From a virus (lineage: Duplodnaviria > Heunggongvirae > Uroviricota > Caudoviricetes), in the IMG/VR virus record IMGVR_UViG_3300027996_000012, positions 1 through 64,000 of that record: a stretch of 64,000 nucleotides of DNA; one strand, 5' to 3'. Shown here piece after piece: positions 43 through 29,499 of this stretch. Both the position numbers and the translations under genes were made by a program. The stretch's first letter is position 1; every line of letters starts with the position of its first letter. The notes beneath the pieces are model-generated. The model saw only the letters and a list, made by a program, of their open reading frames with translations. It searched no databases and had not been told where the DNA came from.

Positions 43-3000
43 GTGACACAAACAGAAATCTACATACTCGTTCCAACCAACACAGCCGTCTTTGTCGCTG
101 GTATATATCCCGCAGATGTGCGAATACACAACCATACGGCTTCTCTCCAGGAATTTAAGCCTAGTGCGGGAACCTATACCTTCCAGAAGAAGGTCACGAT
201 GAAGACCGACAGCACTGGTGATATGCATTGGGATAACTCCAATAGTCCTGACATCAATTTCCAGGGTGACTTTGAACAGGCCATCGGTAGCACTGGTGTA
301 CCCACATGGACAAAGGGTTCCGGGACAATTGGCATCGCTGGCGGTAACACACAAGTTCTCGATTTTGATTCCTTTAGTATGGAAGAGATCGTGATGGCCA
401 AGTCGGGCACCAATGTGGCTTCGATCACTGGTACCTTCACTACTGAATATCTCATGCTGGTCACCGGCTACTGGGACTTCGGTGATGCCGACATCACATG
501 CACGGGTGACTTCACAGCCGACAATGCTGACATCAATTGGGGTTCTGGGAACATCATCATCGGTGGACACTGTGACTGGGAGGATGTCCCTGCTTACACG
601 CGCGGGACAAGCCAAACCAAGCTTACTGGAACCAGCAAGAATCTCAGCATGGGTGGTCGTGTCTACAGCCTGTGGGTCACAGGCTCATACACAACCGTTG
701 GTGGAACCAACATTGGTGTTCAAGACGGTGATCTCATCGTTGATGGTACCCTGACAGCCGGTAATACTACGGGTCTATGGGCTTGGTGGGATTCCAAGGT
801 CCAGATCAATACTGGTGGTACAATCAACGGAACCACTGGTCTTACCTGTTATCGAAGTCAAAATGGTGGTGGCCTCACAGTTCTCGATGGAACGCTGTCA
901 CCGACTACGTTCTTCATTCGTGAATCATACAGCACTGGTGTGTTCGTGGGTGGTACCTGGGACTGCATCGTATACCTCTTTGGCCAAGGTGCCGATGCTG
1001 AGATCAGGTTGAACAATGAGACCTATACCATTACTGGTCCCGTGTATTTCCAGTCCTATGATGGCTACACAACACTCATGAACAATGCCATCAACAACCC
1101 GTCATTCATCTTGCACCACAACTTCATAGCTTTATGGGTTGATGGTGGAACACTCACCTGGACTAAGGGAACTGGTTTCATTACTCTCGCGTCAGGTGGA
1201 TCTCAAACCTTCAGTATGGAAGACATTCCAACACAGACTGTTGAAGACATTTACATTACGAGCGGTAGCACGGTGACCCTCAATAGCAACATCAAAACAG
1301 ATGCTCTGCTAGTTCAAGCGGGTACTACCCTGAACATCAACGGAAAGACTCTGCAAACACTGGGATATTTCCAGGTTAGTAACGGCGGGGCGCTCACTGT
1401 GGCTGGCCTCAATGGTTGTACCATCACCGTTGGTGGCCAACTGCGTCTGTATGGGGCTTCCGGAGACAAGCTTGATCTGGGTGCCACAGCGACGTGGTAT
1501 CTCAATGTCACCGATCCGACAACCATCGTGCAACATGTCACGGTCAAGAACTCCGATGCATCGGGCGGTGTGACTATCCACAGTACGAATTCGATTAACG
1601 AAGGCAATAACATCAATTGGGCTTTCGATGGCCTCTACTGGACCAACGGTGCATCCACTGGTCTCGTGAATGATTATCGTAACTGGGGTTCCGAAAGTGG
1701 TGTGGTAGACAACGCTGGTGTGCCAGGTCTGCTTGACACACCAATCTGGGATGGCAGTGTTACGGACACCTGCACACTCGATCTCCATTGGAGCGTGGCT
1801 GGTGCCGATATGCAGGCTGGCTTCACCGGGAAGATCGACGGAGCAACCTACAACTTTACCTCATCGGGAGATTGTGACTTTGATGGCGGCGAAGTTGATT
1901 TCGGAACCGGAACCTGGCAGTTCGGCGGTTACGCTGACTTCATCAATGTGACCACCATCACTAAGGGTACCGCGACGATCAAGATGGTCACGGCCGGAAA
2001 GACCCTGTCCCTGCAAACGACAGATACCTTCTGTGACATCTGGATCGCGGCCAATACCACCATAGTTGCAAGCGCCTCCGGAGCATGTGAAGGGCTAGAT
2101 GTTGATGCCACCCTTACCGTGAATACCGGGTCGATACTGGCTACCCGTGGTGTCGTTGATGTTTCTGGTACAATCACTGGAACCGGGACCATGGTGGTCT
2201 ATGCTGGTGGCATTGGTGAAGGTATTACTGGGATGTCAGGCACTATTGACATTGCAACCTTGTTTGTCTATGTCACAGTAGGGACAGCAGGTATCGTACC
2301 AATGGTGGCTGCTCAATACGATAGCGCACTAACTTATATCGGATCACAAGTAACGGGTGGCGAATTCAATTTTGCTGCCACAACCACGACCTTCACCGGA
2401 AATGTTAGCCTTGTTGCCCTTGACGGTGGTGATACTGCTCATTTCAAGAACTCAACGAACAATCCATCCTTGGTCTTCCAAGGCAACGTGAACAAGACCG
2501 GGGCTGGTTCCACATCGTGGACCACCGGCTCTGGCACCATCACCTTCTCGGGCACCACTGCGGATCAGCAGGTTGCATTTGACGGGAACTCAGTAGAAGA
2601 CATCATCATGAATAAGGGTGCTGGTAAAGTCACCCTTACGGCTGCTCTGTCATGTGAGAGCTTAGCCCTCAATGATGGGGACTGGGATGCCAATGACTAC
2701 AACGTCACTGTCTCTGGTAACGTCAATCTGGACAATGACTCAATTCTCATGGGTGATGGAAACACATGGGAAGTCAACGGCTCATGGGACAGCAAGGATT
2801 TGGCTATCGGGGCTGGCCGCGAGACTGCTACGCTGAAGATGACTGGTACTGGCGTCACACTGAACATGATGTACGCAAGCGGTGTATACTCGCTGTGGTT
2901 TGCTTCGGGATGTTCGGTCACAATTGATGACAATACCAAAGGTGGCCATGTCCATAATGGTATCTTGACCGTGGATGGAACCGTCTCAATGGGATCTGGA

Positions 3001-3426
3001 TGCTCCCTACAGTTATTTGCATATACCACTGGTAAGCTGAGAGTCAACACCACGGGGTATGTTACCGGAGCGGCTGGGCAATTGTGGGTCAGAGACGCCA
3101 GTGAAGGGGCCGGTATTGATGTCATGGATGGAGTAGTTGATTGTCTCTGGATAATCCTGGAAAAATGGCTGTCCACAGGTGTAATGGTTGGTGGTATCTA
3201 TAATGCTGTTGGGGTACAAATTCGTTCCAGTAACTCATATGATTGCACATTCAAGTTCTCAGATGATACCTATGTCTTTGATGGAGCTACGGGTGTCCAA
3301 CTTCGTGCGTTAAACGGTTGGGATATGGCCATCGATAATACCAACGGGGCACGGATCATTTTGCCTGACGGCGGTATCAGCATTAACGAAACCGGCGGCG
3401 GTGTCGTCTCTTGGGTGGAGGAATAA
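43..3426 (+). CDS. tail fibre-like beta-helix repeat protein (1127 aa); reading frame is open back to nt 1, so the N-terminus may lie upstream of the window
   Basis: Long ORF with a G/T/N/S-rich composition and repeated ~90 aa modules (WTKGTGFITL..., WTTGSGTITFSGT..., NVTVSGNVNLDND). This is typical of right-handed beta-helix fibres. It is followed by two more fibre genes. Confidence 0.8.
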   Translation: MTQTEIYILVPTNTAVFVAGIYPADVRIHNHTASLQEFKPSAGTYTFQKKVTMKTDSTGDMHWDNSNSPDINFQGDFEQAIGSTGVPTWTKGSGTIGIAGGNTQVLDFDSFSMEEIVMAKSGTNVASITGTFTTEYLMLVTGYWDFGDADITCTGDFTADNADINWGSGNIIIGGHCDWEDVPAYTRGTSQTKLTGTSKNLSMGGRVYSLWVTGSYTTVGGTNIGVQDGDLIVDGTLTAGNTTGLWAWWDSKVQINTGGTINGTTGLTCYRSQNGGGLTVLDGTLSPTTFFIRESYSTGVFVGGTWDCIVYLFGQGADAEIRLNNETYTITGPVYFQSYDGYTTLMNNAINNPSFILHHNFIALWVDGGTLTWTKGTGFITLASGGSQTFSMEDIPTQTVEDIYITSGSTVTLNSNIKTDALLVQAGTTLNINGKTLQTLGYFQVSNGGALTVAGLNGCTITVGGQLRLYGASGDKLDLGATATWYLNVTDPTTIVQHVTVKNSDASGGVTIHSTNSINEGNNINWAFDGLYWTNGASTGLVNDYRNWGSESGVVDNAGVPGLLDTPIWDGSVTDTCTLDLHWSVAGADMQAGFTGKIDGATYNFTSSGDCDFDGGEVDFGTGTWQFGGYADFINVTTITKGTATIKMVTAGKTLSLQTTDTFCDIWIAANTTIVASASGACEGLDVDATLTVNTGSILATRGVVDVSGTITGTGTMVVYAGGIGEGITGMSGTIDIATLFVYVTVGTAGIVPMVAAQYDSALTYIGSQVTGGEFNFAATTTTFTGNVSLVALDGGDTAHFKNSTNNPSLVFQGNVNKTGAGSTSWTTGSGTITFSGTTADQQVAFDGNSVEDIIMNKGAGKVTLTAALSCESLALNDGDWDANDYNVTVSGNVNLDNDSILMGDGNTWEVNGSWDSKDLAIGAGRETATLKMTGTGVTLNMMYASGVYSLWFASGCSVTIDDNTKGGHVHNGILTVDGTVSMGSGCSLQLFAYTTGKLRVNTTGYVTGAAGQLWVRDASEGAGIDVMDGVVDCLWIILEKWLSTGVMVGGIYNAVGVQIRSSNSYDCTFKFSDDTYVFDGATGVQLRALNGWDMAIDNTNGARIILPDGGISINETGGGVVSWVEE

Positions 3427-3428
3427 CC

Positions 3429-5756
3429 ATGTCGATTTGGATTACAGGCGCAGAAAACAAAAGCATTGATCACGGGTCGCTGGAAACAGATCCGGTGAGT
3501 GTGAATCTCCGTGAAGGCTGGTCCTTCAACGGGCTCAGTGATTATGTGTCATTCGCGGATCACGCGGACCTGACATTCCCGGATGCTGATTGGAGCTTTG
3601 GTGGTTGGATCAAACCGGTAGATAACGGTGAAGCAGCCGCAATTCTCTTCAGTTGGAACTATCCAACGCATCCCAGTATTCTTCCATACCTCAATATGAG
3701 CACGCTGAAAATCTGGGCATACTGGAATGATGGTACGGACAACATCAATACCGATTTGGGCGACTTCGTATTTGGTGCGTGGCAACACATCCTATTTGTA
3801 CGAACTGGTACTTCACTCAAGTTGTATGTAGACGGGCGTGAAACTGGATCAACACCAATCGGCAATGTTGATGCCGTGAACGGGGCCGGTGCCATGTATG
3901 CTGGAGTCCGAACGGCTCTGGACATCTACTGGTATGAAGGTGAGATGAGTAACTGGGCCAAATGGGATTCAGCCCTAGCCAAAGCGGACAGGGTTGCTCT
4001 TGCTGGCGGTATTGATGCCCGAGTCGTGGATACAGGGAACCAGAAGTGGTGTTGCCCGATGAAGCGTGGCGACTACTCAGTAGTTGGTGACACCTTTGCT
4101 GTAACCAACAATGGCACCAGCGATGGAACCGCTTACACAGCCACGTTGACAGCCAGTATCAACTGTGCTGGCCTCAAGGTCTACCAAGGAACCTTCGATG
4201 CTGACACCTATGGGCTCACCCTGCGGGGAGACACACTGCTGGCCAACAACTCAGTTCTGTTCGGGAATCAAACGTGGGATGTCTCTGGCGACTTTGATGA
4301 CCAGGAACTCGATGCACACACAGCAGAGACCAGCACACTGAAGCTCACAGGAGCCACCAAGACTCTCTCGCGGCCCACCACGGGTTCTGGAAACTACTTC
4401 GAGAATGTCTGGATCACAGGTTCATACACCATGGATACAGGTCACCTTCAGTATGATGGTGATGCCACGGTAGACGGTAGTCTGTCTCTCGGCAGTGGGC
4501 TGTCCTTCACCGGATACTTCAATGCTGACCTTGACATCAATGGTACTGTAACGGGCCTTGGGCAGATTTCCATGTACGGGATGTACGCCGCCCATGGCAT
4601 TGTAGGAAACGATGGGACGCTCACTTGTGCCAATCTCTACATTGATGACCCGGAAGCCACTTCAGTTTTTGATCCAGGCGACTACTCTGGACTCACTGGT
4701 ATTCTCTATATCAGGGACCGCACCACCTGGGCCGGTGACTCGACACTGAAGTTTGCAGCAGGCACCTTCACGTTTGGGGACATCGTCGCCACAACCCAGG
4801 GCGCGGATGATCTCTATTTTGATTGCACCAACAACCCGACCATCATTTTCACTGGAGACTATTCAGAAGTCAATGACTCAACCGGGGTAGTGTATTGGAC
4901 GCCAGGTGCAAGTGATACCATCACCTTTAGCGGAAGCGACGATCAGGATATTGGTTTTAGCGACTGTATTGGAAACGTAGTTGTCAACAAGTCTGGTGGT
5001 ACACTGACCTTGACCGCAAATCTTTGTTGTGCCAGTCTTGATATTCAAGACGGGAATTTCGATGCCAACGGTTACAATGTGACCATCAACGGAGACTTCA
5101 CGCTCACCAATCTGGGTGACACGCTCACCATGGGCTCAGGCACTTGGGAATGCAGCGGTAACGTCAATTGGGTTGGCTGCGGAACTATCGCCCCTGAAAC
5201 ATCGGTACTGAAACTGACTGGCTCTGGCAAGACTCTGGATGCTACCGTTGATGCGTATTGCAGAAATCTGTGGATCACTGGATCATATACGATCCCAGTC
5301 ACCACAGGGTGGTTTGGGGCGAATGCTGGTACCGTAACTATTGATGGTACGCTTACCAGCAACAACGGATTTGCAATTCTTGTTGGTACTTTGGATTTGA
5401 ATGTGGGCGGCACCGTAACCGGCTCGGGTTACATGAATGTCCATGCATCTAGTATCACGACACTGGACGGAACTTGGGACACAGCTATCGGATACATTTC
5501 TGAGCCCCTTGCTTGGACCAATACCTTTGCACCTGGTACCATTGCTTGTGCTGAAATGAGGATTCGTGCTATTGGTGCCGATGACCGGGGAATCCGTTAT
5601 GACTCTGGCACACATATCTACACTGGCAATGTGATATTCCGCTGCTATGGTACTGGAAACCTCACTGTTGACACCACTACCAACAGTCCGATCATTGATT
5701 TTAGAGGCAACTTGGGCGTACTAGAAGACAGCACCGGTCAAGTGATCTTCGCATAA
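3429..5756 (+). CDS. tail fibre protein with an N-terminal LamG/concanavalin-like domain and a C-terminal beta-helix module
   Basis: ATG at 3429 follows the RBS GGAGGAATAACC. The motifs DWSFGGWIKP ... WAKWDS match a Laminin_G_3-like domain. The C-terminus carries the shared module WTPGASDTITFSGSDDQ...NKSGGTLTLTANL...FDANGYNVTINGDF. Confidence 0.8.
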   Translation: MSIWITGAENKSIDHGSLETDPVSVNLREGWSFNGLSDYVSFADHADLTFPDADWSFGGWIKPVDNGEAAAILFSWNYPTHPSILPYLNMSTLKIWAYWNDGTDNINTDLGDFVFGAWQHILFVRTGTSLKLYVDGRETGSTPIGNVDAVNGAGAMYAGVRTALDIYWYEGEMSNWAKWDSALAKADRVALAGGIDARVVDTGNQKWCCPMKRGDYSVVGDTFAVTNNGTSDGTAYTATLTASINCAGLKVYQGTFDADTYGLTLRGDTLLANNSVLFGNQTWDVSGDFDDQELDAHTAETSTLKLTGATKTLSRPTTGSGNYFENVWITGSYTMDTGHLQYDGDATVDGSLSLGSGLSFTGYFNADLDINGTVTGLGQISMYGMYAAHGIVGNDGTLTCANLYIDDPEATSVFDPGDYSGLTGILYIRDRTTWAGDSTLKFAAGTFTFGDIVATTQGADDLYFDCTNNPTIIFTGDYSEVNDSTGVVYWTPGASDTITFSGSDDQDIGFSDCIGNVVVNKSGGTLTLTANLCCASLDIQDGNFDANGYNVTINGDFTLTNLGDTLTMGSGTWECSGNVNWVGCGTIAPETSVLKLTGSGKTLDATVDAYCRNLWITGSYTIPVTTGWFGANAGTVTIDGTLTSNNGFAILVGTLDLNVGGTVTGSGYMNVHASSITTLDGTWDTAIGYISEPLAWTNTFAPGTIACAEMRIRAIGADDRGIRYDSGTHIYTGNVIFRCYGTGNLTVDTTTNSPIIDFRGNLGVLEDSTGQVIFA

Positions 5757-5767
5757 GGAGAGGAAGC

Positions 5768-8700
5768 ATGTCAATCAAATTCACAGGCACCGCGAATCAG
5801 AGTGTTGACCTTGCTGGTCGAGCATTTGCTGATAGCGTTGAAGTCGATAAGTCTGCGGGGACGCTCACTCTCACTGGTGATTTCGGTGCTGCAAGTCTCG
5901 TTCTGACAGATGGTAATTGGACCACGTCCACATTTGATGTGACGATCAACGGGAACGTAACCTTCAACATCACTGACACCATCAATATGGGCACGGGCAG
6001 TCTCTGGACCATCGCTGGCAACTTCGATCCGTACTTCGCTGGAATCACATTCAATCGTCAGACTTCAACCATCAAGATGACCGGATCTGGTAAGACTTGG
6101 TGGGGTGGTAATGCTGACTGTCTCTACAATCTCATTTGGATTGCGTCTGGCGCAAGCATCACGCTCACGAATACCGTTCAGGTTTATGGGTCTGCAAGCA
6201 ATGCAATCCGTATCGATGGGACGTTTGATCTAGCCGGGAACGGCTGTATCTGTTGGACAGCCGCTGGTGTTGCTGTTGGTGCCTCTGGGGTGGTTGATTC
6301 CACCGCTGCCGGGCATGTTCGGTTCAAATCCAACTCAGTTGGTGTGACCCAGATGTTGGGGACCTGGAACGCACGGCTTGAAATCCAGCAGCCTAAGAGC
6401 ATGACCCTTGTGGCAGCAACCTACGGGGACGGCACGGCAACGAAACACTGTGAAGTGATCTTCACACAAGACACAGACAAGCTTATCCTACCGGCCAGTA
6501 CCACAATCTTCAATATGGACTTCGAGGTCGAGAACACTGGGGCCTTTGTTGGTACTATCGATATGGATACCAACGATGCCAGCCTCAATGTCACTGGAAA
6601 TTTCGCTGTGGTGAATTCTGGTGCTGGATCAATCGTTTGGGACAAAGGCACCGGTTCGATCACATTCAGCGGAACAGCGGCACAAAGCTTCACCTGTATT
6701 TATACCATTGAAGACGTGATCATCAACAAGTCTAGCAACACGCTTACATTGGCCAGCGATATGGTCACCGATAGCATTACGGGAACCACGGGAAGCTTCA
6801 ATGCTAGCACCTATGATATCACCACAACTACAAGCGCAATCTTCGATTTCTCAACGCTCACGATGGGCACCGGCAACACATGGACCGTTGGAACCACATT
6901 TGACTGTGAAGATTGTACCACCGTCACGACTGGCACAGCAACCCTGAAGCTTACCGGTACAGGAACATTTAAGACAGGGCTTCATTATGTCTTCCATCTA
7001 TGGGTCACATCGACTGCTACCATTACGGTAGACGATGGCTATGGGCAAGTTGGTGCAGAGACAGGGACCCCCACCTGTCTTATCGATGGGACTATGATTC
7101 TTACCGACTGGCTAATTTCGGCATGGAAATGCCAGATGACTGTCTCTGCCACGGCCAATATCAGTGGTGTATCCGGGCTCTTTATCAATCATCCACACAC
7201 TGGTGGTGGTATGGTAGCCTACAGTGCCAGTGCCACTGTCACATGTACCAACCTGAGATTCCATTACCCAATGGGTACCGCAGTATTGATCCCGGCTGAT
7301 TATTCATCGATCACCTTGACTGATGTCTATGTCGGTAACGCCACCGCCAGGGAGATAAAACTCAATTCTGGCACTTACTCGTTCTTCAGTTTGTATTTCC
7401 GAGAGACCTCATCAGGCACACTGCATGTCAATAATGTGAACAACCCGGATATCAATGTGGGTCGCCATTTCCTGGTGGACGGTAACGGGCTTACATATAC
7501 GGCTGGAACTGGTACCATCACAATGGACGGAAGTGCTGACCAAGGTTATTTCAGTACGAGCACTCACCAGATTGAAGACACAGTGTTTGCCAAAACCGGT
7601 GGCAAAGTAGTCTATATCTGGGATGACTCCACGGTTGGTGGGAATCTCGACATCAATGGCTGTGTGGCCGACTTCAATAATGCCAAGAAGTCTCTGACGG
7701 TATGGGGTGATGTAACCATCAATGCAACAGGTACATTGCTGATGGGTGACGCAACGTCCTACTTCAATGTCTATGGAAACTTCGACAACTCTAACAGTCT
7801 CACAGCAAACATCACTCGCAATACTGGTGTCTTGGTCATGAAGGGTTCTGGCAAAACACTTCAGACAGAAGCTGTTGGTGGCGTTGGTAATTACATAACT
7901 TCCATCACCATTGATACCGGAGCAAGCATCACCCAGGTTAATGACACAGTGCGTGTCTATGACGGTAATCTCAAGGTGTACGGTACGCTCACGCTGTCTA
8001 CCTATCTCATCCCATACTACTCGGCGAAGACATATCTGTACTCTACGGGTGTAATCAATGGCGCAGGTTATTTGTATCCATATCTCCCAAGAAATGGGTG
8101 TGGTATTCTGTTACTTGACGGTTCTTTGGCGTGTGCAAATGTCTATGTGAATTTCCACCCAACATACCCGACTGCCGTCTTTGTGGCCGGGGACTATACC
8201 GGTCTTTCCGGGAAGTTCTATTTCCGAAGTACATATACCAGTAGCGATCCTACTGTGTATTGGACACCTTCTGCTGGAACCTACCAGTTCAAGAATGTTG
8301 AATTCCGTACCTACACTGGGGACGGCACATTTACCATTGAAGGTGACACTGGTAATCCGAATTATGAAATCAGCGGCGACTTTCTGGTTCAGAATCTGGC
8401 TGGCGGCACGGTTACTTGGGATGCTGGCTCAGGTACTATGACCTTCAACGGCTCGGGTGCGCAAACACTTACTTGCCCCGCTAACATGACCTATGAAGCG
8501 GGCCGCGTGGACAAGTCAGGTGGGACCCTTACCGCTGTCTGTACCAACCTTGGATTTGCTAACACATTCAATCTGGTGAATGGCAGCTATTCACAAACCG
8601 GTGGAAACCTTTGGACCACACATATGACCCTGGCCGGTAGCGGTACCTTCACTCAAAATAGTTCCGTGTACCTCACTGGGAACTATCATGACTCGGCCCA

Positions 8701-11700
8701 TACCGGTACACAAACAATGAATGCCGTGCAGATGTATGGCGCAGGGGCCACGATGACTTTCCGGGCTCCAAACTCCACCATTGCAAACCTGTATATCGGG
8801 AACGTATACGGAGTTGCATCAACCACAATGATTGCTGGCCACCTCTATGTTGGTACCGCTCTTATTGTTGATGGTAATGGTAGCTCGCTTACAATCAATG
8901 CTGGTAAGGGTTTCTCAATGCTTAATGGCAGCACACTTGATTTGAATACTGGCGGCACCATTACTGGGGCGGGCTATCTGCATTTCTGGTCCGCAGCAGG
9001 AATATCTGACATTGGTGGTACCCTCTCAATTGCTACCGTGCGATGCTACAGCACTTTGGCAGGAGCGGTCTTTGTACCAGGTACCTACGAGTGCGGTGAG
9101 TTCATCATCATCTCCAACGGTGGAGGGGCTCATACCTTCCCATTCCGGGCAGGTGATTATGTGTTCTCGAATGGTAGTCTTCAGTTTGAAGCATACGGCA
9201 CCGCATCGAATACACTCACCATTGACTGCACCACTTATCAACCCGTGACCATCGACGTTGCTGGTGACCTCATTTGGGACACACTGGCGGGGTCCAACGT
9301 CAACATTGTTGTCAATTGTTCAAGTCGAGATGTTCGTTGGCACATTGGCGGGGACGTAGTGGATGCCAAATCAGGTAGTGGTACCGTGACCTGGACCAAG
9401 GGTACCGGGTACATTTATCTGGACACAGACGACAATGATAGCGGCACGGTGGACTTCCTCAACCAACAAACGGATACTGTGATTCAAGGCGAGTGGCCAT
9501 CTTACTACTTCAACGGTACCTCCGCAGAATTTGAACTGGATGATCCCCTACCGTTCCCAGGTGGTTCTAGCACGGCCAAATGGTCTATCGGTGGCTGGAT
9601 TAAACCAGCGGGTAAGCTCAATGCATTTGACTACGAAGTGATCTTTGCCACCGCAGTAGGTAATTCCAATTGGATAAACGCGAACAACTCCCTCTGTCTG
9701 CTAATGTACCAGTATGATCATGCTACGTATCCAGGAAAGCTTCGGTTTGCTATGAAGGACGGCGCTGGAGCCACAATGGATTTCGCTAGCACTGCTACCT
9801 TTCTTTTTAGCACAGGTAACGACCGCTGGCGTCACATCCAGGTACAGCGTAACAACAACAATATCTATCTGTACATTGATGGCGTTCTTGACAGCACTGT
9901 ATCCTGTGCAGCGGTTGGGGCCATTGACACCAGCGATCATTTCAGCCTGGGTAACTTTGTGGGCACAACAGCAGCCTACTGGTTCCATGGCTACATGCGA
10001 GAATGGTCCAAATGGCAGTCTGGTAAGAACTCCAGTCCCCATGATGACAGCATCAGTATCATCCATGGTGGACGCGAGAATATGGACTGGTCGCTAATAC
10101 TCGATAGCGACGATGAGTGGTACAACGGTTTGAACACGACCAACACCAACTGTGTCCTGGATACAGGTGATGATAAGGACGTTGCCCTCACTGGCCCGAT
10201 ACGTCCGGCCAACTACTATGGTCGGTATGGTACCTTTGATCCAAACGGGCAAACCATCAATAGCCCTGGTGTAGTGGCTCTTGGGAACAAAGACGTGTAC
10301 GGCACTCTTGATCTCATGGACGGATGCACGATCACCTGTGATACCTTCTATGTTGGTGGTATCGAGATGGATGGCTTCAAGTGTTTGGCTCAGTCGGCCT
10401 GGTATCTTAATGTTACCACCACCGGCTACTTCTTTGATTCCCAAATTGCTTACTGTGACGCATCGAGCAGCACTGTGGTACCCACAGCCAATCCAATATG
10501 CATAGATCGCGGGAACAACATCGGCATTGACTTCATTGATCCTCAAATCTACCTCTTGGATAATGGACTAACTGCTTGGGCATCAGGCTGGTGGGCCACA
10601 AATCATGGTGGGGCCCATACACGCTTCCTTGCTAGAACACAACAGAACGGCGTCTGGGGTTGTTCTGTGCAGCAATCTGGTAACCACATCTATTGGGCCA
10701 GTACGGTCCATAATGCGATCTCACGCGCCAGTCTTGATGGTCAAGATTTTGAGTACATCAAGACTGGTATCCCCACTCCATACGTGATTACAGTGTGTGC
10801 CGAGCATGGTTACATATGGTACAGTGACTATGTGGGCTACACAGTCGAGCGGGTTGATTTGGACGGCACCAATCAAACCAGTATGGGAACGGCTTCATTA
10901 CCGTCTGGCCTAGCTGTGGACCCAATCAATAAGAAGCTGTATGTCGCCGAAAAGGGCAACGACATCATCTATTCGATGAACTTCGATGGCACCAGTAAAA
11001 CGGCTGTCCATACTCTGGCAGCACTCAGCGAGCCCCGGAAATTGACCATTGACTACATCAATGGGATGCTATATTGGACTGAGGACAATAGCTTTGGCAG
11101 TGGTAATCGAATACGTAGTGGAACTACGGGAGGCGCAAGTCTCACGACTATCTACACAGGCTATGTGACGGACATTGAATGGTCACACCAACAAAATCGG
11201 CTGTACATGAGTGACGACCAAGGATATTGCTGGCGAATGTACGGTGACGGGACCAACCTCCAGACTGTGGTTGATGAGTCTGCGACCACCAGACCTTTCT
11301 ATGGTGTTGGCGTCCTTGATGGTATTGGTGGCGGTGGGAGTCCAGGAACCTGCCCCGATGGACATGATGATAGGCTGTTCGTTGTGGATACCGGAACCAC
11401 TGACGGGATTAGAATGCAGGATCGTGCCTGGGGTACACCGGCAGACTACATGACCGGTCGTGGGATTGCTGCCTCCGATTGCAAGGTTGATGATATCAAT
11501 GGCTGGTTCTACTGGGTAGACAACGTCGTGAATGCAATCATGCGATGCCGACTCAATGGTACACGACCAGAGATGATCATTGACAACAGACTTGACGGCA
11601 CCAATACTGTGAAATGGATTTGCTTGGCTCCGGACAAGGGTTATCTATTCTACGTGAAGACACCTGATAACCAACTTCGACGCTGTAACCTTGATGGTTC

Positions 11701-12994
11701 TGATGAACGCATCATCGTCAACAGTGCATATACCTACAAGGACTATTGGTCGATTGACTACGAGCGCCAATCCGCAAGGGTCTATTGGACCTCACGAGCA
11801 GATGGCCGTATCGTCTATTGTGGATACGATGGTTCCAGCCCCACTGTGCTGCAATCTGGACTCACACTCCCATCTTACATGTGTATTGATAATACGAATC
11901 GACGGATCATCTGGTGTGACAACACTGACTTCAAATACTACCGGTGTGCCTATACCGGTGGTGCTATCTCACACTTCGGTAATGGCGGTGCCTGGCCGAT
12001 TACATACTCACCTGCGAATGACTTCATGTATCTCATCTACACCAGTGGTGTGTATGGTATATCCTGTGCCACTGTGGGTCCCGTGGGAACTATTCCGCTG
12101 TTGTGGACAAGCACCGGTGGAAACCTGGATGCCATCAGCTTCAACGAGAAATGGCTGCCCTCGCGGTCTGTAGTCAAGGGTCGTATCATTGCCTTTGAGG
12201 ATGGGGGTAACGATCTCCATAAGATGGACATGCACGGTGAATACTTGGTCATGGAGACTAATAACCCTGTTCATAGTCAGGTATTCAATGCTGCTGGAAT
12301 GTTCAATGCCGCGCGGAGAATGGTGTGGGCTGAATACACAACAGGAACCATCTACAACAGGAATCCCACGGGTGCAAGTACCCTAGTCTATACGGCACCC
12401 GCAGGGGTGTATTGTCTCTGTGTTGATGAAGCCCGGTATAGGGTGTACTTCTATGTGAATGGTTATGGGATCTATTCAATGCAAGCTGGTGGTGTCGGTG
12501 GTCCGACACAGATCGTGGCGAATGGAAGCCTTAGCGGTAGTGTTCGAGGCATCTGGTATCAATCCACTGAAGACAAGATTTACATTAGCAGCAGTAGTGA
12601 CATCATCTGGAAATGTGATCGTGACGGCGGCAATTTTGCTGTATGGAAAACTGGTAGCGGAAACACCGGAGATTATCCGATCTCAATCACAGGTGATACT
12701 GTGCGGCAAAAAATCTTCTGGTCAAGCTACACGGATGCGGATATTCATGTGGCCGATACTGATGGCTCTAACCATTCGGTTCTGTGGGCTGGCTCTGGGA
12801 CGGCAGATCAGATCGGCCACATTGTCTACAATCCGGCCGATGACTACCTGTATATGGGCCACTACAACATCCACCATATTTCTCGGATGCGGTCAGATGG
12901 AGCGAATCGAGAGATCATCTATGAGTCGGCACAAACTGGTGACCGATTCAGAACTCTTGTAATTTGGAACTCAATTGGGGAGGTGTTGATATGA
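5768..12994 (+). CDS. giant tail fibre / adhesin (2408 aa) with beta-helix modules, a LamG domain (~nt 9480-10090) and tandem YWTD (LDL-receptor class B-like) beta-propeller repeats (~nt 10680-12950)
   Basis: RBS AGGAGAGGAAGC then ATG. Repeated modules include WDKGTGSITFSGTAAQ, WDAGSGTMTFNGSGAQ and WTKGTGYIYL. The motifs WSIGGWIKPAG...EWSKWQS indicate LamG. The C-terminal third has at least 12 repeats of the form (L/I/V)YW(T/S)(D/E)... (LYWTEDN, FYWVDNV, VYWTSRADGRIVYCGYDGS, IIWCDNTDFKYYRC, IFWSSYTDADIHVADTDGS). Confidence 0.85.
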   Translation: MSIKFTGTANQSVDLAGRAFADSVEVDKSAGTLTLTGDFGAASLVLTDGNWTTSTFDVTINGNVTFNITDTINMGTGSLWTIAGNFDPYFAGITFNRQTSTIKMTGSGKTWWGGNADCLYNLIWIASGASITLTNTVQVYGSASNAIRIDGTFDLAGNGCICWTAAGVAVGASGVVDSTAAGHVRFKSNSVGVTQMLGTWNARLEIQQPKSMTLVAATYGDGTATKHCEVIFTQDTDKLILPASTTIFNMDFEVENTGAFVGTIDMDTNDASLNVTGNFAVVNSGAGSIVWDKGTGSITFSGTAAQSFTCIYTIEDVIINKSSNTLTLASDMVTDSITGTTGSFNASTYDITTTTSAIFDFSTLTMGTGNTWTVGTTFDCEDCTTVTTGTATLKLTGTGTFKTGLHYVFHLWVTSTATITVDDGYGQVGAETGTPTCLIDGTMILTDWLISAWKCQMTVSATANISGVSGLFINHPHTGGGMVAYSASATVTCTNLRFHYPMGTAVLIPADYSSITLTDVYVGNATAREIKLNSGTYSFFSLYFRETSSGTLHVNNVNNPDINVGRHFLVDGNGLTYTAGTGTITMDGSADQGYFSTSTHQIEDTVFAKTGGKVVYIWDDSTVGGNLDINGCVADFNNAKKSLTVWGDVTINATGTLLMGDATSYFNVYGNFDNSNSLTANITRNTGVLVMKGSGKTLQTEAVGGVGNYITSITIDTGASITQVNDTVRVYDGNLKVYGTLTLSTYLIPYYSAKTYLYSTGVINGAGYLYPYLPRNGCGILLLDGSLACANVYVNFHPTYPTAVFVAGDYTGLSGKFYFRSTYTSSDPTVYWTPSAGTYQFKNVEFRTYTGDGTFTIEGDTGNPNYEISGDFLVQNLAGGTVTWDAGSGTMTFNGSGAQTLTCPANMTYEAGRVDKSGGTLTAVCTNLGFANTFNLVNGSYSQTGGNLWTTHMTLAGSGTFTQNSSVYLTGNYHDSAHTGTQTMNAVQMYGAGATMTFRAPNSTIANLYIGNVYGVASTTMIAGHLYVGTALIVDGNGSSLTINAGKGFSMLNGSTLDLNTGGTITGAGYLHFWSAAGISDIGGTLSIATVRCYSTLAGAVFVPGTYECGEFIIISNGGGAHTFPFRAGDYVFSNGSLQFEAYGTASNTLTIDCTTYQPVTIDVAGDLIWDTLAGSNVNIVVNCSSRDVRWHIGGDVVDAKSGSGTVTWTKGTGYIYLDTDDNDSGTVDFLNQQTDTVIQGEWPSYYFNGTSAEFELDDPLPFPGGSSTAKWSIGGWIKPAGKLNAFDYEVIFATAVGNSNWINANNSLCLLMYQYDHATYPGKLRFAMKDGAGATMDFASTATFLFSTGNDRWRHIQVQRNNNNIYLYIDGVLDSTVSCAAVGAIDTSDHFSLGNFVGTTAAYWFHGYMREWSKWQSGKNSSPHDDSISIIHGGRENMDWSLILDSDDEWYNGLNTTNTNCVLDTGDDKDVALTGPIRPANYYGRYGTFDPNGQTINSPGVVALGNKDVYGTLDLMDGCTITCDTFYVGGIEMDGFKCLAQSAWYLNVTTTGYFFDSQIAYCDASSSTVVPTANPICIDRGNNIGIDFIDPQIYLLDNGLTAWASGWWATNHGGAHTRFLARTQQNGVWGCSVQQSGNHIYWASTVHNAISRASLDGQDFEYIKTGIPTPYVITVCAEHGYIWYSDYVGYTVERVDLDGTNQTSMGTASLPSGLAVDPINKKLYVAEKGNDIIYSMNFDGTSKTAVHTLAALSEPRKLTIDYINGMLYWTEDNSFGSGNRIRSGTTGGASLTTIYTGYVTDIEWSHQQNRLYMSDDQGYCWRMYGDGTNLQTVVDESATTRPFYGVGVLDGIGGGGSPGTCPDGHDDRLFVVDTGTTDGIRMQDRAWGTPADYMTGRGIAASDCKVDDINGWFYWVDNVVNAIMRCRLNGTRPEMIIDNRLDGTNTVKWICLAPDKGYLFYVKTPDNQLRRCNLDGSDERIIVNSAYTYKDYWSIDYERQSARVYWTSRADGRIVYCGYDGSSPTVLQSGLTLPSYMCIDNTNRRIIWCDNTDFKYYRCAYTGGAISHFGNGGAWPITYSPANDFMYLIYTSGVYGISCATVGPVGTIPLLWTSTGGNLDAISFNEKWLPSRSVVKGRIIAFEDGGNDLHKMDMHGEYLVMETNNPVHSQVFNAAGMFNAARRMVWAEYTTGTIYNRNPTGASTLVYTAPAGVYCLCVDEARYRVYFYVNGYGIYSMQAGGVGGPTQIVANGSLSGSVRGIWYQSTEDKIYISSSSDIIWKCDRDGGNFAVWKTGSGNTGDYPISITGDTVRQKIFWSSYTDADIHVADTDGSNHSVLWAGSGTADQIGHIVYNPADDYLYMGHYNIHHISRMRSDGANREIIYESAQTGDRFRTLVIWNSIGEVLI

Positions 12995-13377
12995 TAACCA
13001 TGGAAGCTCCGTACCCCAGTATTCAAACAACGTCAGTCTTCCCGAATCCCCAGCTTGGGGACAGCGAGGAACTCACTGATGAGGTTATCACCAAGCGTGC
13101 CATGGACGGGACGCTATATACCTACGTGAAGACCAAGGGTCTCCGAAGACGTTTGGTTTGGGAACTCTCAATGAGTCGAATGAAGGCTCTTGAGTTGCGA
13201 AACTTTGTCCGCTCTTATTTTGCTTCCAAAATGCGGATAACTGACCATCTTGACCGCGTCTGGGTTGGGCATCTCGTAAATGACCCATTTGAGTTCACGA
13301 CACCTGCGCGTGCTGAATTCTTCCCTGGTCACGAGCGTCAGACGATTCAAATCGAGTTTGAAGGGATCATGCAATGA
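12991..13377 (+). CDS. hypothetical protein (128 aa), probably tail-associated
   Basis: ATG at 12991 overlaps the fibre stop (ATGA) and is preceded by GGGGAGG. It lies between the fibre and the large structural gene. Confidence 0.55.
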   Translation: MITMEAPYPSIQTTSVFPNPQLGDSEELTDEVITKRAMDGTLYTYVKTKGLRRRLVWELSMSRMKALELRNFVRSYFASKMRITDHLDRVWVGHLVNDPFEFTTPARAEFFPGHERQTIQIEFEGIMQ

Positions 13378-16241
13378 GAAATCTTTCAGCCGCTGCCATC
13401 AATGCTGTCCGTACACGTTTAGGTACTGAACCTATTGTGATTATCAAAATCGCTTGGGATGCCGAAAATGAACATATGACGAACATGTATGCTGATCGAG
13501 ATATCGGAACCATCCCCGGTAAGATTCTCGATGTCAGCACCATAGACAACGTGATCAGCATTGACCAAAGTGAAGACTCAGCGGAGATGGACATAACCCT
13601 TGATGATACAGACGGTAGCATCAAGGCTATCATGAACGAGCACGATATTCATAAGCGGGATGTGTGGGTGTATCACTGGTTTGAAGGACTTGATCTAGCA
13701 GACAAGTTCCTTCTCATTCGCGGGAAGATTAGTTCACCAGTGAGTTGGAATGAAGGGGAACGGTCTGTTTCGTTTAGTGTTGTGACCCAGATTGAGGACA
13801 AAGAGGTGGGGTTCTCGCCCGAGGAGGGGCAGTTCCCCTTTGTCCCAAAGGACATGGTTGGCACGACATGGCCTTCCATCTTTGGTACGCCGTATGATGT
13901 CCCGGCGGTACAATGTAATCGAGCCTTGACTGGAACAACACTGTGCCCCGTCAGTATCCTGACTGGGGTATCAGCGCACCTCAATGCTGGTTGGGGTTCC
14001 AACCCACCTGATTTTCGACAGGCCCAGCAATCGCGTCAACACTACGACTACATGTTTGCAGACTGGTATGGTGTGGATGACGATGAGGCTAGTAAAGCCT
14101 TGGACCAAGTTAATGAGATCTCTAACCAAATAGTCAAAACTGCGGAAGACTGGTACCGGTCACAGATGTGTGCATTAGAACAACGTTACGAGACAGTCAA
14201 TGCTGCTTTGGCAAAGGGGTCCGGTTGTAATCCAATACACATCCTTGGCGGTGAAGACTTTCCGAGGGGTGGGCTTACGCTACAGATTGGTGGTGGTATC
14301 TTTGTGGGTCATTTTGGAGAAGAAAATACCGAATTTGATGACAAATTCTATGTCACAAATAAATGGCACGCACCCTCCGAATCGGCCTCCAGTAGTGCAT
14401 CACAGGACAGGGACTCTCTTTGGTGTAAGACGCCGCCCAAGCCAGCCAACATTGTAAAGTTGGAAGGTAAGATACCCTGTGTAGGGTCTCTGAGCAAACC
14501 ACCATCGGATCTCACATCAGGTAAATTTATGATTGCGGGTGATTGCGTAAGACGCACCATCCGGATCTACTGGTACAACGACCCTGAAGAGGATACGCCT
14601 GATAGCGATGTGCTACAGCATTTTTGGGGTGACGCGGGCTCACAAGTCAGTATTGTTGGTGACGAACCAATTACCTACATAGTGAGTATTGTCCCCGGTA
14701 CTGTGCTAACCGTGAAGGCATTCAAAGATTTCCATGGTATCAAGATACTTTCTACGGTGCCTACCGAACTCTATGAGGTGAAAAATGTGTCATACGGGCC
14801 AATTGACACCGTACAAGTTGTCCTTACCAATACCTTGAGTCTCATGGAAGATGAAAACTGGAGCGACGATTTGTATGTGACATTCGAGTCGGATGTTGGC
14901 CCCAATATCTGTGACATTCTGATATACCTCATTGATGTGTACTCGGATATGACCTACGATCCTGTGAGTTTTGCTGAGGTTGGTGAAAAACTAGATATCT
15001 TCCCCGCCAACTTTGCGCTGTTAGAACGAAAGAATCTGGTCTCAGTTCTCAATGAAATTGCTTTTCAAGCTCGGTGCAGTCTTCGATTGATTGATGGGGT
15101 CTTCTATATACGATACCTTGCTGAAGAACCCACTGCTGTGGACACCATCACTGAGCAGGACATTGAAACCAATACCATTTCAATGGAACTCACGTCTACA
15201 GAAAATCTGGTGACAAAATACACGGCGACTTGGCGACTTAGTTATGCCCAGCCAGAACTCAACAAACTCATCCTACGTCACAATATCCGGAAGTATGGGA
15301 TTCAGGAGGAGGAGTATGAATACTACATCTATCACCATCCAGATACCATTTACAAGATTGCCACCTTCTGGTTGATCAGGAAATCAAATACATGGAAACG
15401 TTTGTCATTCAAGACATTTCTCAACAAGATGAACCTGGAAGCCTTTGATGCTGTGACACTGAGCTTTCAGTCGCCCTATATCGCTAACGGCGATATCAAA
15501 GCCACTGTTGAAGTCGCTGACCTAGAAACCTCGGACCAAAGCATGTCTTTGAATTGCTGGCTGCCCGTGAAATCAGGTGAAATGGAAGCATACGATTTTG
15601 CCTGGCCAGCTAATGTCAATCCAGAATGGGTCTTCCCGACCAGTAGAGAAATTGATTTGGGTCTGGCCGGTGGAGACGGTCCAGGTGCTCAAGCCACTGG
15701 TGACCTCCCTGTCGGTTATTATGAGTCACTCATAGGCGAGGGTGTAGTGTATGTTGGTGGCCCAGCTATCGGACTCTCATCACATGGAGACTATGGTGAC
15801 CGAAGTCCCTCAGATTGGAAAACTTTGGGACAGAAATGGTCGCCACAACCTGTGGGGAAATTCAGGCCGGTGTATCCTGAATTCCAATCTAAACCAGTGG
15901 TAAACACACGGATGTCAGGGCGGGTTCAAATTCCTGATCCTGAAATTCCGACGATAGAAACAACAGAACCTACTACCTTGTATATAGAAAATACGAGGAT
16001 CAGGACAACTGAGAAGGATGGTGAAGAAAACTGGGCTTCACTTGAAGACGTGTTCCGGTTGTTACCGGCCGAGAAGGATGTTCAAGACCGCGAGCTACAA
16101 CTGGTTATTTCCGACGAAGCTTATGTTGGTGGAGAAGAAGACGATGAGGAAAAACCCACCAAGCAATTCGATTTCCAGTATGATGACGAAGGTGAACTGT
16201 GGGGTTGCGGAACCTGTTACTTGCAAGCAGGAGAAGAATGA
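13374..16241 (+). CDS. putative tail/baseplate structural protein (955 aa)
   Basis: Long ORF, translationally coupled (ATGA). Its position directly after the fibres is the only basis for the call, as no catalytic motif was recognised. Confidence 0.5.
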   Translation: MRNLSAAAINAVRTRLGTEPIVIIKIAWDAENEHMTNMYADRDIGTIPGKILDVSTIDNVISIDQSEDSAEMDITLDDTDGSIKAIMNEHDIHKRDVWVYHWFEGLDLADKFLLIRGKISSPVSWNEGERSVSFSVVTQIEDKEVGFSPEEGQFPFVPKDMVGTTWPSIFGTPYDVPAVQCNRALTGTTLCPVSILTGVSAHLNAGWGSNPPDFRQAQQSRQHYDYMFADWYGVDDDEASKALDQVNEISNQIVKTAEDWYRSQMCALEQRYETVNAALAKGSGCNPIHILGGEDFPRGGLTLQIGGGIFVGHFGEENTEFDDKFYVTNKWHAPSESASSSASQDRDSLWCKTPPKPANIVKLEGKIPCVGSLSKPPSDLTSGKFMIAGDCVRRTIRIYWYNDPEEDTPDSDVLQHFWGDAGSQVSIVGDEPITYIVSIVPGTVLTVKAFKDFHGIKILSTVPTELYEVKNVSYGPIDTVQVVLTNTLSLMEDENWSDDLYVTFESDVGPNICDILIYLIDVYSDMTYDPVSFAEVGEKLDIFPANFALLERKNLVSVLNEIAFQARCSLRLIDGVFYIRYLAEEPTAVDTITEQDIETNTISMELTSTENLVTKYTATWRLSYAQPELNKLILRHNIRKYGIQEEEYEYYIYHHPDTIYKIATFWLIRKSNTWKRLSFKTFLNKMNLEAFDAVTLSFQSPYIANGDIKATVEVADLETSDQSMSLNCWLPVKSGEMEAYDFAWPANVNPEWVFPTSREIDLGLAGGDGPGAQATGDLPVGYYESLIGEGVVYVGGPAIGLSSHGDYGDRSPSDWKTLGQKWSPQPVGKFRPVYPEFQSKPVVNTRMSGRVQIPDPEIPTIETTEPTTLYIENTRIRTTEKDGEENWASLEDVFRLLPAEKDVQDRELQLVISDEAYVGGEEDDEEKPTKQFDFQYDDEGELWGCGTCYLQAGEE

Positions 16242-16807
16242 TGGAATTTCTCAACTGGATCAATGACATTATCTCCTCGTTGCTCAGCTTCATACCGCGC
16301 CCGATTATCGTGCGGGCGACTCATGGCGGTGTAAAATGGCCGTGGGGTAAGACAGCCAAGGAAATGTGCCCTGGGTTTCATTGGTACTGGCCTTTTTCAA
16401 CAGAGTTTGAGGTGATCCCTATCGCTCGACAGACGCTCAATCTCAAAACACAAGCCTTGATGACAAAAGACAAACAACAGGTCGTCGTTGGCGCACTTGT
16501 CGTGTACACCATTAACGACGTAGTGCGAGCTATCGGCAAGCGGAACTTTGACATAGATGCGACGGTCTATGACATCACACAAGCCGCGATAGTCGAAGCA
16601 GTGACTAAATGGACTCTCGACGACCTGTTATCTAACATCGCTGATAAGGTGGAAACGCAACTAACCCGCACGGTGCAGAAAAGACTGCGCCAGTTCGGTG
16701 TGCGTGTTCAGCGGACAGCCTTGACTGACTTCTCAACGGCGGTTGTCTACAAGATTCTCAGTGACGGCCTGCCACAGATGCCCCCGCCCGTGGCAGAGGA
16801 GGAATAA
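16241..16807 (+). CDS. SPFH/band-7 (prohibitin/stomatin-like) domain protein
   Basis: The stretch VRATHGGVKWPWGKTAKEMCPGFHWYWPFSTEFEVIPIARQTLNLKTQALMTKDKQQVVVGALVVYTINDVVRA follows the SPFH core pattern. The ATG overlaps the preceding stop. Confidence 0.5.
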   Translation: MEFLNWINDIISSLLSFIPRPIIVRATHGGVKWPWGKTAKEMCPGFHWYWPFSTEFEVIPIARQTLNLKTQALMTKDKQQVVVGALVVYTINDVVRAIGKRNFDIDATVYDITQAAIVEAVTKWTLDDLLSNIADKVETQLTRTVQKRLRQFGVRVQRTALTDFSTAVVYKILSDGLPQMPPPVAEEE

Positions 16808-25278: not shown

Positions 25279-25475
25279 TACAGTGTTGTCCTCCATTTGG
25301 CTCTACCCTACAATACGGTACTTGATCGGCGAATCTTTGACGAAAGTCTGAATTTGCCGAAAATCCGAATAAGGAAGCCGCGATCATTCCATCATAATAC
25401 GCCCGAACCCCCTGTGTCAAGAGGCTTTGTGTTAAGAAAGCTGCAATGGTCAAACTGTGTGGTGGCGGCCGGTTG

Positions 25476-25959
25476 AAAGTCACCTCACTTCAAATATCCG
25501 AGTGAGGTGACTTTGGGGCAAAAGATACAAGTGGTGCGAAATGGTTTGATATTTACCCCAGGGTAAGGGAGGTTGCTTTATGATTTCAAACTTTTGTTGT
25601 TTCTCTTGATGGACCGAAAACAGCTAAAACCCTGTGTCTTTTGAACCCCATTTTCATAAACCACATACTGAAAAGAACTTACGTCGATTAGTGAGGTGAC
25701 TTTTGGTAGTGAAAAGTCACCCCACCTCGAAAATCCCAGGTGACTTTTCACTACCAAAAGTCACCTGGCTGACAAAAGTCCGGCACTATTTTGAGAATTC
25801 TGAGAAACTTTCGGGTTTTGTCGAAGATCACGGCAACATCTACCGTATAATAAGATGTATCACATTTTGCAGGTTTTGAAAGTCACCAGCATTGAGATTC
25901 GAGACTGAGGTGACTTTTCACCAATCTCAGGTGACTTTTCACTACCAAAAGTCACCAGG
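25476..25959. repeat. array of palindromic iterons GGTGACTTTT-N7-AAAAGTCACC (candidate parS/operator/origin)
   Basis: Perfect inverted repeats at 25476-25514, 25693-25721, 25736-25768 and 25928-25959, with extra half-sites at ~25877-25888 and 25908-25923. The 7-nt spacers are GGTAGTG or its complement CACTACC. Confidence 0.75.
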
Positions 25960-29413: not shown

Positions 29414-29421
29414 GAAATGGT

Positions 29422-29494
29422 GCGGGTTGGAGCAGTCCGGTTAGCTCGCCAGACTCATAATCTGGGGGTCTGGGGTTCAAATCCCTGACCCGCT
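29422..29494 (+). tRNA. tRNA-Met/Ile2 (anticodon CAT)
   Basis: Cloverleaf with acceptor GCGGGTT/GACCCGC, D-arm GAGCAGTCCGGTTAGCTC, anticodon stem CCAGA/TCTGG with loop CTCATAA, and T-loop GGGGTTCAAATCC. Confidence 0.7.
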
Positions 29495-29499
29495 ACTTA

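Follow-up and report, generated by a model that had tools for sequence, protein, structure and literature searches.

Organization of the giant gene and its C-terminal propellers

We analysed 64,000 nucleotides (nt) of the virus record IMGVR_UViG_3300027996_000012 (Caudoviricetes; this whole stretch is hereafter called the window), with a focus on the giant gene carried by its plus strand at 5768..12994, i.e. 2408 codons without a stop. A strong Shine-Dalgarno sequence (AAGGAG) lies 8 nt 5' of its ATG, and its TGA stop shares bases with the ATG of a downstream gene of 128 amino acids (aa) (12991..13377, plus strand), to which it is translationally coupled by this ATGA overlap. The small gene is kept in a syntenic sister phage (JGI Ga0209926_1000001 = IMGVR_UViG_3300007764_000001), and its product gave no family match in Pfam, PHROG and NCBIfam scans. 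An identical database protein (P0063) comes from several metagenome assemblies, on contigs of up to 177,656 bp. The 2408-aa protein has neither signal peptide nor transmembrane (TM) segment, the highest Kyte-Doolittle mean over 19 aa being 1.49. From the N to the C terminus, it probably consists of four all-beta modules of ~300 aa, a LamG domain, a cap motif and three tandem six-bladed YWTD propellers without EGF spacers.

Homology to LDL-receptor class B (YWTD) propellers extends over the last ~780 aa. The first-pass annotation, made from the letters and translations alone, had proposed blades of this type and quoted six peptide strings, all of which were found in the translation; its proposal was borne out at the level of sequence (Pfam and phmmer against PDB) as well as of predicted fold, and the Pfam and AlphaFold checks that it had advised recovered both the family and a propeller fold. 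In a phmmer comparison of aa 1601-2408 with all PDB sequences, the 36 matches obtained were without exception YWTD-propeller proteins, including LRP2 (E-value 1.3e-55), LRP4 (2.7e-50), LRP6 (6e-28), LDLR (1e-5), nidogen (2e-5), LRP8 and VLDLR. Identity of the propeller region to these animal YWTD proteins was ~22-29 %. When 5.8 billion proteins were searched, the bacterial protein P0001, which sits in a cellular gene context, came first (3.1e-51, 93 % coverage), followed by LRP6, VLDLR and LRP8.

Among Pfam families, DUF5050 (i.e. LRP1-like_beta_prop, PF16472; cut-off 27 bits) scored 42.7 bits over three stretches of aa 1601-2408, and 39.6 and 30.0 bits when this region was scanned as two halves, the best stretch lying within propeller 2. 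Ldl_recept_b (PF00058; cut-off 21 bits) scored 25.9 bits (E-value 1.4e-5) on aa 1601-2000 alone and was unreported for the whole protein or the 808-aa C-terminal query, so that the outcome varies with the limits chosen for the query. The NHL-type repeats that had been named as another option gave no match and were discarded. The scan of all 2408 aa returned no propeller family above threshold, just a borderline LamG; as whole-protein Pfam misses the propellers, proteins of this kind are probably under-counted in viromes.

AlphaFold2 modelled aa 1601-2408 as an all-beta structure of 70 strands, at a mean confidence score (pLDDT) of 73. In a Foldseek comparison of this model with PDB, the top 47 matches were LRP4, LRP2/megalin, LRP6, ROS1 and Sevenless (E-values from 3e-37 to 1e-20). 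The TM-score relative to the query was ~0.3, as expected when one of three propellers superposes. A mere compositional or chance pattern of repeats, devoid of any propeller, might be suggested by the whole-protein Pfam scan and by the Pfam assignment precomputed by the source database, which gives LamG only. Its probability is practically negligible: it is refuted by the region-only Pfam scores above cut-off, by E-values down to 1e-55 and by the match of the predicted fold to LRP4, LRP2 and LRP6, and the propeller region is 40-54 % identical in the orthologue of the sister phage.

The six-bladed clan also includes calcium-dependent lactonases, SGL/gluconolactonases, arylesterases, phytase-like phosphatases and Vgb lyases, and phage tailspikes are frequently enzymes. 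The propellers could accordingly be viewed as catalytic, i.e. as parts of a tail-borne depolymerase or esterase degrading or deacylating a host surface polymer, a view with which sub-threshold Pfam matches to SGL (26.1 bits, cut-off 26.3), Vgb_lyase, Lactonase and Arylesterase and a faint phytase-like match in NCBIfam agree. The matches to non-catalytic YWTD proteins are far stronger (1e-55 vs about 1e-5) and every enzyme family stays below its curated cut-off, and we consider an enzymatic function very unlikely.

In order to delimit the blades, a hidden Markov model (HMM) was started from ten repeats chosen by hand as seeds, the orthologue being brought in during iteration. The minimum of 12 repeats given by the first-pass annotation proved right: the blade HMM detected 12 strong units of ~42 aa, starting at aa 1629, 1671, 1712, 1756, 1800, 1902, 1948, 1993, 2035, 2259, 2304 and 2349, of which the ten seeds match by construction and the other two (1756 and 2259) are unseeded, independent detections. 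Weak units were found at aa 1860, 2187 and 2214. The arrangement into two six-bladed propellers was, for its part, replaced by three, on the basis of blade spacing, of the strands of the AlphaFold model and of the separate PDB matches obtained for each third. The 70 strands of the model are equivalent to ~17.5 four-stranded blades. YWTD-type strands were located at model positions 40, 82, 123, 167, 211 and 269 for propeller 1, 313, 359, 404, 446, 486 and ~550 for propeller 2, and 585, 625, 670, 715, 760 and ~797 for propeller 3 (model residue n being protein residue n + 1600). These 17-18 blade units in ~780 aa, an inexact count, indicate three predicted domains of 240-275 aa each.

Propeller 1 (aa ~1626-1900; 10643..11467, plus strand) shows five strong blades and a weak one, its six blades being clear, with pLDDT values mostly of 85-95 and PDB matches to LRP2 and LRP6; the Pfam matches to Ldl_recept_b (25.9 bits) and SGL (26.1 bits) fall here. 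Propeller 2 (aa ~1901-2170; 11468..12277, plus strand) is made of four strong blades, modelled at pLDDT 75-93, and two blade-sized units (blades 5 and 6, aa ~2077-2180) that are degenerate in sequence and modelled at pLDDT <50; taken alone, aa 1896-2165 matched LRP4 (1.9e-39) and LRP6 (9e-21) in PDB. Propeller 3 (aa ~2171-2408; 12278..12991, plus strand) has three strong and two weak blades, and a short C-terminal strand pair of the model may close its sixth blade; aa 2161-2408 alone matched LRP6 (1.6e-10) and LRP4 (1.6e-8), with pLDDT values of ~75-88.

No EGF-like module was detected by Pfam, and there is no Cys-rich stretch between the propellers, the 16 Cys being scattered over ~800 aa. 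The pairing of a propeller with a C-terminal EGF module is the defining trait of the architecture of animal receptors, and not of the propeller fold as such. At the DNA level, a scan of the 64-kb window found no repeat of at least 40 nt in the giant gene, the single exception in the window being a hairpin pair at ~25.5 kb; the blades are thus old and diverged and not recent duplications. A diversity-generating retroelement or a recent duplication was likewise ruled out, as the window lacks DNA repeats of at least 40 nt other than this 42-nt hairpin pair.

Stalk, LamG domain and relatives of each part

The region upstream of the LamG domain (aa 1-1225; 5768..9442, plus strand) comprises four Thr/Gly/Asn-rich modules of ~300 aa (M1, 1-300; M2, 301-590; M3, 591-895; M4, 896-1225), each closing with G(T/S)G.(I/M).(F/M).G and together considered as a putative beta-solenoid stalk. 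M1 to M3 are mutually related (E-values from 1e-10 to 1e-16) and M4 weakly so, according to phmmer between hand-cut modules; unlike this comparison, self-BLAST of the stalk at 1e-3 revealed no repeats. The AlphaFold model of the stalk, built from three sequences, displays regular short beta strands throughout (pLDDT 67). Its best Foldseek match was non-significant (E-value 0.03), and the proteins listed were nearly all beta-solenoid adhesins (EtpA, Hap, SepA, EspC, Hbp, Ag43, tapirin and Fap2). On this basis, the beta-helix modules of the first-pass annotation are plausible as a putative N-terminal stalk. Like the adhesins or passengers EtpA, Hap, SepA, Ag43 and tapirin, the protein would then have a long stalk carrying adhesive end domains; it differs from EtpA-type adhesins by the absence of any significant match to them, of a secretion domain and of a Pfam match for the stalk.

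A HMMER search of the stalk against 1.84 billion representative proteins retrieved 170 relatives, mostly in phage-like contexts and including the products of both upstream neighbours of the giant gene, and a tblastn search of 50,697 GenBank phage records gave no match. Judged from these comparisons, the ~300-aa stalk module forms a family of its own. One of its distant relatives, P0065 (2125 aa; L007 10001-16378, Logan SRR26786784 contig), consists of stalk modules only, with two cap motifs and no propeller, and its gene lies directly 3' of genes for a portal and for Mu-F head morphogenesis, on a different phage-like contig. The gene surroundings of two further relatives, P0072 and P0111, gave no clue.

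The LamG or concanavalin-A-like lectin domain occupies aa 1268-1414 (9569..10009, plus strand). It scored 27.4 bits with Laminin_G_3 (PF13385; E-value 4.2e-6), i.e. 0.2 bits below the cut-off of 27.6, and 16 bits with Laminin_G_2, and the precomputed Pfam data of the source give PF13385 for P0063 (marked weak) and for its orthologue P0064; the LamG domain of the first-pass annotation is therefore supported, at a borderline score. Against PHROG, only the LamG piece of the protein gave matches, to phrog_3545 (unknown function; E-value 2.3e-5) and, faintly, to phrog_701 'virion structural protein' (E-value 0.008); stalk and propellers gave none. Between this domain and the propellers stands a conserved cap motif read from the sequences, W.LN...Y....CDAS...P..C.DRGNNIG.DF (aa ~1560-1606; 10445..10585, plus strand), which also closes the module arrays of P0065.

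The propellers share with LRP2, LRP4, LRP5/6, LDLR, VLDLR, nidogen, ROS1 and Sevenless a blade of ~42 aa in which a (L/I/V)(Y/F)W(T/S/V)(D/E) strand is followed, further on, by a DG(S/T) turn, and, as in animal YWTD receptors, several of them stand in tandem in one chain. Unlike these receptors, the protein has no EGF module, its propellers abut, several blades are degenerate, membrane anchor and LA repeats are lacking, and the protein is of phage origin.

Closer counterparts were found in bacteria. A pattern search recovered 248 bacterial YWTD loci with 22-34 % identity; the patterns were built from a 3-sequence alignment, the 12 distant homologues being too diverse. Tandem propellers combined with adhesion-type domains also occur in bacterial DUF5050/Ldl_recept_b surface proteins (P0001, and proteins of Latescibacterota, Poribacteria, Gemmatimonadota and Spirochaetia), and bacterial LRP1-like_beta_prop/Ldl_recept_b proteins are the probable evolutionary source of the phage propellers. 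The phage protein differs from them by its place in a phage tail module and by its fusion to a phage-specific stalk, theirs being cellular gene contexts; moreover, the Poribacteria proteins carry signal peptides or TM helices (PMC3909097), and the phage protein has neither. Virtually nothing is known about bacterial YWTD proteins (PMC3909097). The phage protein offers a handle on what the YWTD propellers of both bacteria and phages bind.

Propellers as such are not foreign to phages. The receptor-binding protein Gp45 of Staphylococcus phage phi11 reportedly has a five-bladed propeller platform, and the K1F endosialidase is said to contain a six-bladed sialidase propeller. To our knowledge, none of the propeller-bearing receptor-binding proteins of phages has been documented as YWTD, and the known ones are trimers in which each chain of the fibre bears one propeller. 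Among the viral models of BFVD, Foldseek detected propeller folds, for example in an annotated tail fibre, that of Caulobacter phage Percy, and in the 'autotransporter adhesin' of Agrobacterium phage Atu_ph07 (E-values from 5e-20 to 1e-12). What such proteins would have in common with the 2408-aa protein is a propeller borne by the tail and meeting the host surface; these proteins differ from ours by an identity of 9-14 % only and by matches weaker than those to LRP proteins. A further parallel is offered by the tail fibres of extracellular contractile injection systems (eCIS), whose eBAP3 class uses beta-propeller lectins with other shafts for target binding (PMC12923769). The likeness lies in a phage-tail-derived apparatus with target-binding propellers; eBAP3 propellers are of the lectin type on collagen-like trimeric shafts, and neither 'YWTD' nor 'LDL' occurs in PMC12923769.

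The first-pass annotation had regarded such propellers as unusual for phages, which our searches corroborated. A tblastn search of the propeller region against the 50,697 GenBank phage records gave no match, nor did that of a more canonical viral YWTD protein; no PHROG family was found for the propellers; and a literature search yielded no paper that reports phage proteins with YWTD, Ldl_recept_b or DUF5050 domains. In IMG/VR, the patterns that had recovered the 248 bacterial loci retrieved the sister phage only. An independent viral YWTD protein of 1092 aa was identified on IMGVR_UViG_3300007900_000584 (L013 98-3376), with a match to LRP2 at 1.8e-79; its gene is followed by genes of 585, 795 and 619 aa, and these neighbours have no GenBank phage matches. 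Because this unrelated contig encodes a YWTD protein, the domain is not unique to the phage lineage of the window.

Which hosts a phage can infect is determined by the binding modules that its tail fibres carry; most of those known are beta-helix spikes (trimeric), tips resembling lectins, or Ig-like domains. A modular phage adhesin is a known kind of protein; the YWTD binding domain is new to the phage literature, and its presence in triplicate in a tail module enlarges the repertoire of phage adhesin domains.

Gene neighbourhood and proposed role in the tail

The giant gene closes a series of related genes on the same strand. At the start of the window stands the end of the gene for a 3604-aa protein (P0078), whose last 1127 aa are encoded by 43..3426 (plus strand); the remainder lies upstream of the window, the full gene being available on L009 10001-20815 and in part on L002 1-7659. 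In its upstream portion, P0078 has YWTD regions at aa ~1-230, ~330-620 and ~1806-2010; it also contains long tandem repeats of ~35 aa ('TL.LSD...R'), and its stalk module matches the stalk of the 2408-aa protein at 6e-41. The next gene (3411..5756, plus strand) encodes a LamG protein of 775-781 aa (P0081; Laminin_G_3, 50.7 bits), in which LamG is followed by one copy of the stalk module; phmmer relates it to the N-terminal region of the 2408-aa protein at 8e-37. The P0078 gene is itself preceded by a gene of at least 5044 aa (L009 1-9998), cut by the contig end, which encodes at least two YWTD/DUF5050-type regions and whose counterpart in the sister phage is 4895 aa long (L012 2666..17353). 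In total, at least eight YWTD propellers are distributed across three adjacent giant genes, a pattern also seen in the sister phage, and a 955-aa neighbour had no tblastn match in the 50,697 GenBank phage records. The four genes (at least 5044, 3604, 775 and 2408 aa) cover ~35 kb, roughly one fifth of the genome, which would represent an extreme investment in adhesins. Their shared parts suggest domain shuffling among paralogous giants, to broaden or change host range.

The orthologue P0064 of the sister phage is longer (2765 aa; L005/L006 10001-18298). It shares 49 % identity with the 2408-aa protein over the stalk, 53.5 % over propeller 1, 42.9 % over propeller 2 and 39.8 % over propeller 3, has a domain of ~170 aa inserted inside the cap motif and bears an extra LamG-like domain after the propellers. 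These additions show domain-level remodelling between two close phages; identity falling towards the C terminus and extra domains in the orthologue are typical of host-range proteins.

The sister phage also places these genes within a tail module. On one strand, it carries in order small genes, a gene for a 1330-aa tape measure, genes of 96 and 200 aa, three genes of ~350 aa, and then those of 4895, 3617, 775 and 2765 aa (P0064). The 1330-aa protein matched fourteen PHROG tape-measure families (best, phrog_1533 at 5.8e-34). Two of the three ~350-aa gene products were tested and both matched phrog_2448; a paralogue of this family shows weak homology (E-value 3e-5) with the beginning of a Sphingomonas phage Lucius protein annotated as 'putative tail fiber', whose gene is the last of the tail module, directly 5' of reverse-strand replication genes. 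The window, which codes for a primase, a helicase, a ribonucleotide reductase, an RNA ligase and an exonuclease, has a layout as in Lucius, i.e. the giant-gene block followed by reverse-strand exonuclease, kinase and primase genes. The tail location in the phage of the window is transferred from the sister phage by way of the shared gene order (at least 5044, 3604, 775 and 2408 aa), and this gene position supports a tail-distal role. The designation 'tail fibre' of the first-pass annotation can be kept only in part: synteny after the tape measure speaks for it, and homology to a known fibre is lacking. Its placing of the propellers at the distal receptor-binding end is not established.

Based on the whole of these data, we infer that the gene product is an adhesin associated with the virion tail, in a long-tailed, uncultivated phage of large size (about 160-178 kb), and give this explanation, architecture included, a probability of about 0.6. 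Since it has no secretion signal, the protein is proposed to be built into the distal tail, where the stalk would carry the LamG domain and the three propellers outwards. The propeller faces would bind host-surface ligands, protein or glycan, which would result in a multivalent and probably reversible primary adsorption, and the 2408-aa protein would act together with the paralogous giants made of the same parts.

Several observations weigh against this explanation. Neither the 2408-aa protein nor its immediate neighbours match any PHROG tail, fibre or baseplate family, and scans of the protein with Pfam and NCBIfam gave no relevant match for the hallmarks of fibres (S74 intramolecular chaperone, collagen or T4-type shaft). 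The linkage to a tape measure comes from the sister phage, the upstream contig of the window's own phage ending inside the gene of at least 5044 aa. The stalk model has a pLDDT of 67 without significant fold match, and the junction of propellers 2 and 3 (aa ~2091-2182) is modelled at pLDDT <50, hence the inexact number of 17-18 blades. The propellers are N-terminal or internal in the 3604-aa P0078, and in P0064 a further domain comes after them, so that they do not necessarily form the distal tip. Finally, YWTD propellers and autotransporter-like solenoids are monomeric modules, and classical fibres are trimers.

One alternative would be a non-virion protein made in the infected cell, acting for example at the surface or in exclusion, or an internal or ejected protein, whose gene merely adjoins the tail genes. 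The absence of homology to any known structural family, the presence of SPFH/Band_7 and SMC-like coiled-coil proteins within the same gene block, and the position of the gene for the stalk relative P0065, which adjoins portal and Mu-F head genes and not tail genes, are in line with such a protein. Without signal peptide or TM segment, it could not reach the cell surface by Sec; the gene runs in the same direction as those of the tail module and is packed closely with them, in an arrangement kept in the sister phage, and adhesin-type domains are typical of fibres. We therefore hold a non-virion role to be unlikely.

A virion protein could, on the other hand, tether the phage to animal matrix or mucus, or to other environmental surfaces, instead of to a bacterial host. 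Tethering to mucus or matrix has been proposed for Ig-like capsid decorations, and in metazoans YWTD and LamG are classic building blocks of matrix proteins and receptors. Latescibacterota, Poribacteria and Gemmatimonadota account for many of the nearest relatives found in bacteria, and the Ldl_recept_b proteins of Poribacteria have been termed eukaryote-like surface repeat proteins (PMC3909097). The same domain is, however, present in Spirochaetia, Anaerolineae and Planctomycetota, without evident animal link, and a gene lying 3' of a tape measure and fibre-like genes speaks for the tail and for host recognition; the probability of this tethering role is, in our opinion, quite low.

Lastly, the tail-associated adhesin could be one element of a host-recognition apparatus of a new kind, i.e. 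a battery of giant, probably monomeric, adhesin-like solenoid stalks displaying at least eight YWTD propellers and LamG domains, perhaps binding proteins of an animal niche or an unusual host envelope, and not classical trimeric fibres. This extension is doubtful; if true, it would be of higher interest, as the whole battery of giant genes would be a distinct type of adsorption apparatus.

Other features of the window

Besides the genes discussed above, the block of giant and unknown proteins contains an SPFH/Band_7 (prohibitin-like) gene at 16199-16807 (plus strand; Pfam, 84 bits; phrog_200 'lipoprotein'), kept in the sister phage and an odd companion for structural genes. It is followed by a gene for a 540-aa protein (16810-18432, plus strand) with weak SMC-like or coiled-coil matches (NCBIfam ASRP, 25.8 bits; Pfam FH2, 15.6 bits). 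The primase had only a weak match among GenBank phages, to Erythrobacter phage XM05, and no cultivated relative emerged from these searches.

A transfer-messenger RNA (tmRNA) gene was found at 62378-62727 (plus strand) by ARAGORN, with the tag AKPLFATAA, and by Rfam (RF00023, 124 bits, cut-off 47); this phage tmRNA might help host assignment. Genes for tRNA-Met (29421-29496), tRNA-Glu (34425-34498) and tRNA-Thr (63536-63611), all on the plus strand, were identified by both ARAGORN and Rfam, and a tRNA-like match of 90 nt (30048-30137, plus strand) by Rfam only (36 bits, cut-off 29).

The hairpin pair mentioned above corresponds to two copies of a 42-nt palindromic element (TTGAAAGTCACC...GGTGACTTT) at 25473-25514 and 25876-25917, 74 % identical and 403 nt apart. 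The two copies bracket a divergent intergenic region, bordered on one side by the primase gene, which starts at 25483 on the minus strand, and on the other by plus-strand genes that begin at 25975; they could be a regulatory or origin-like element.

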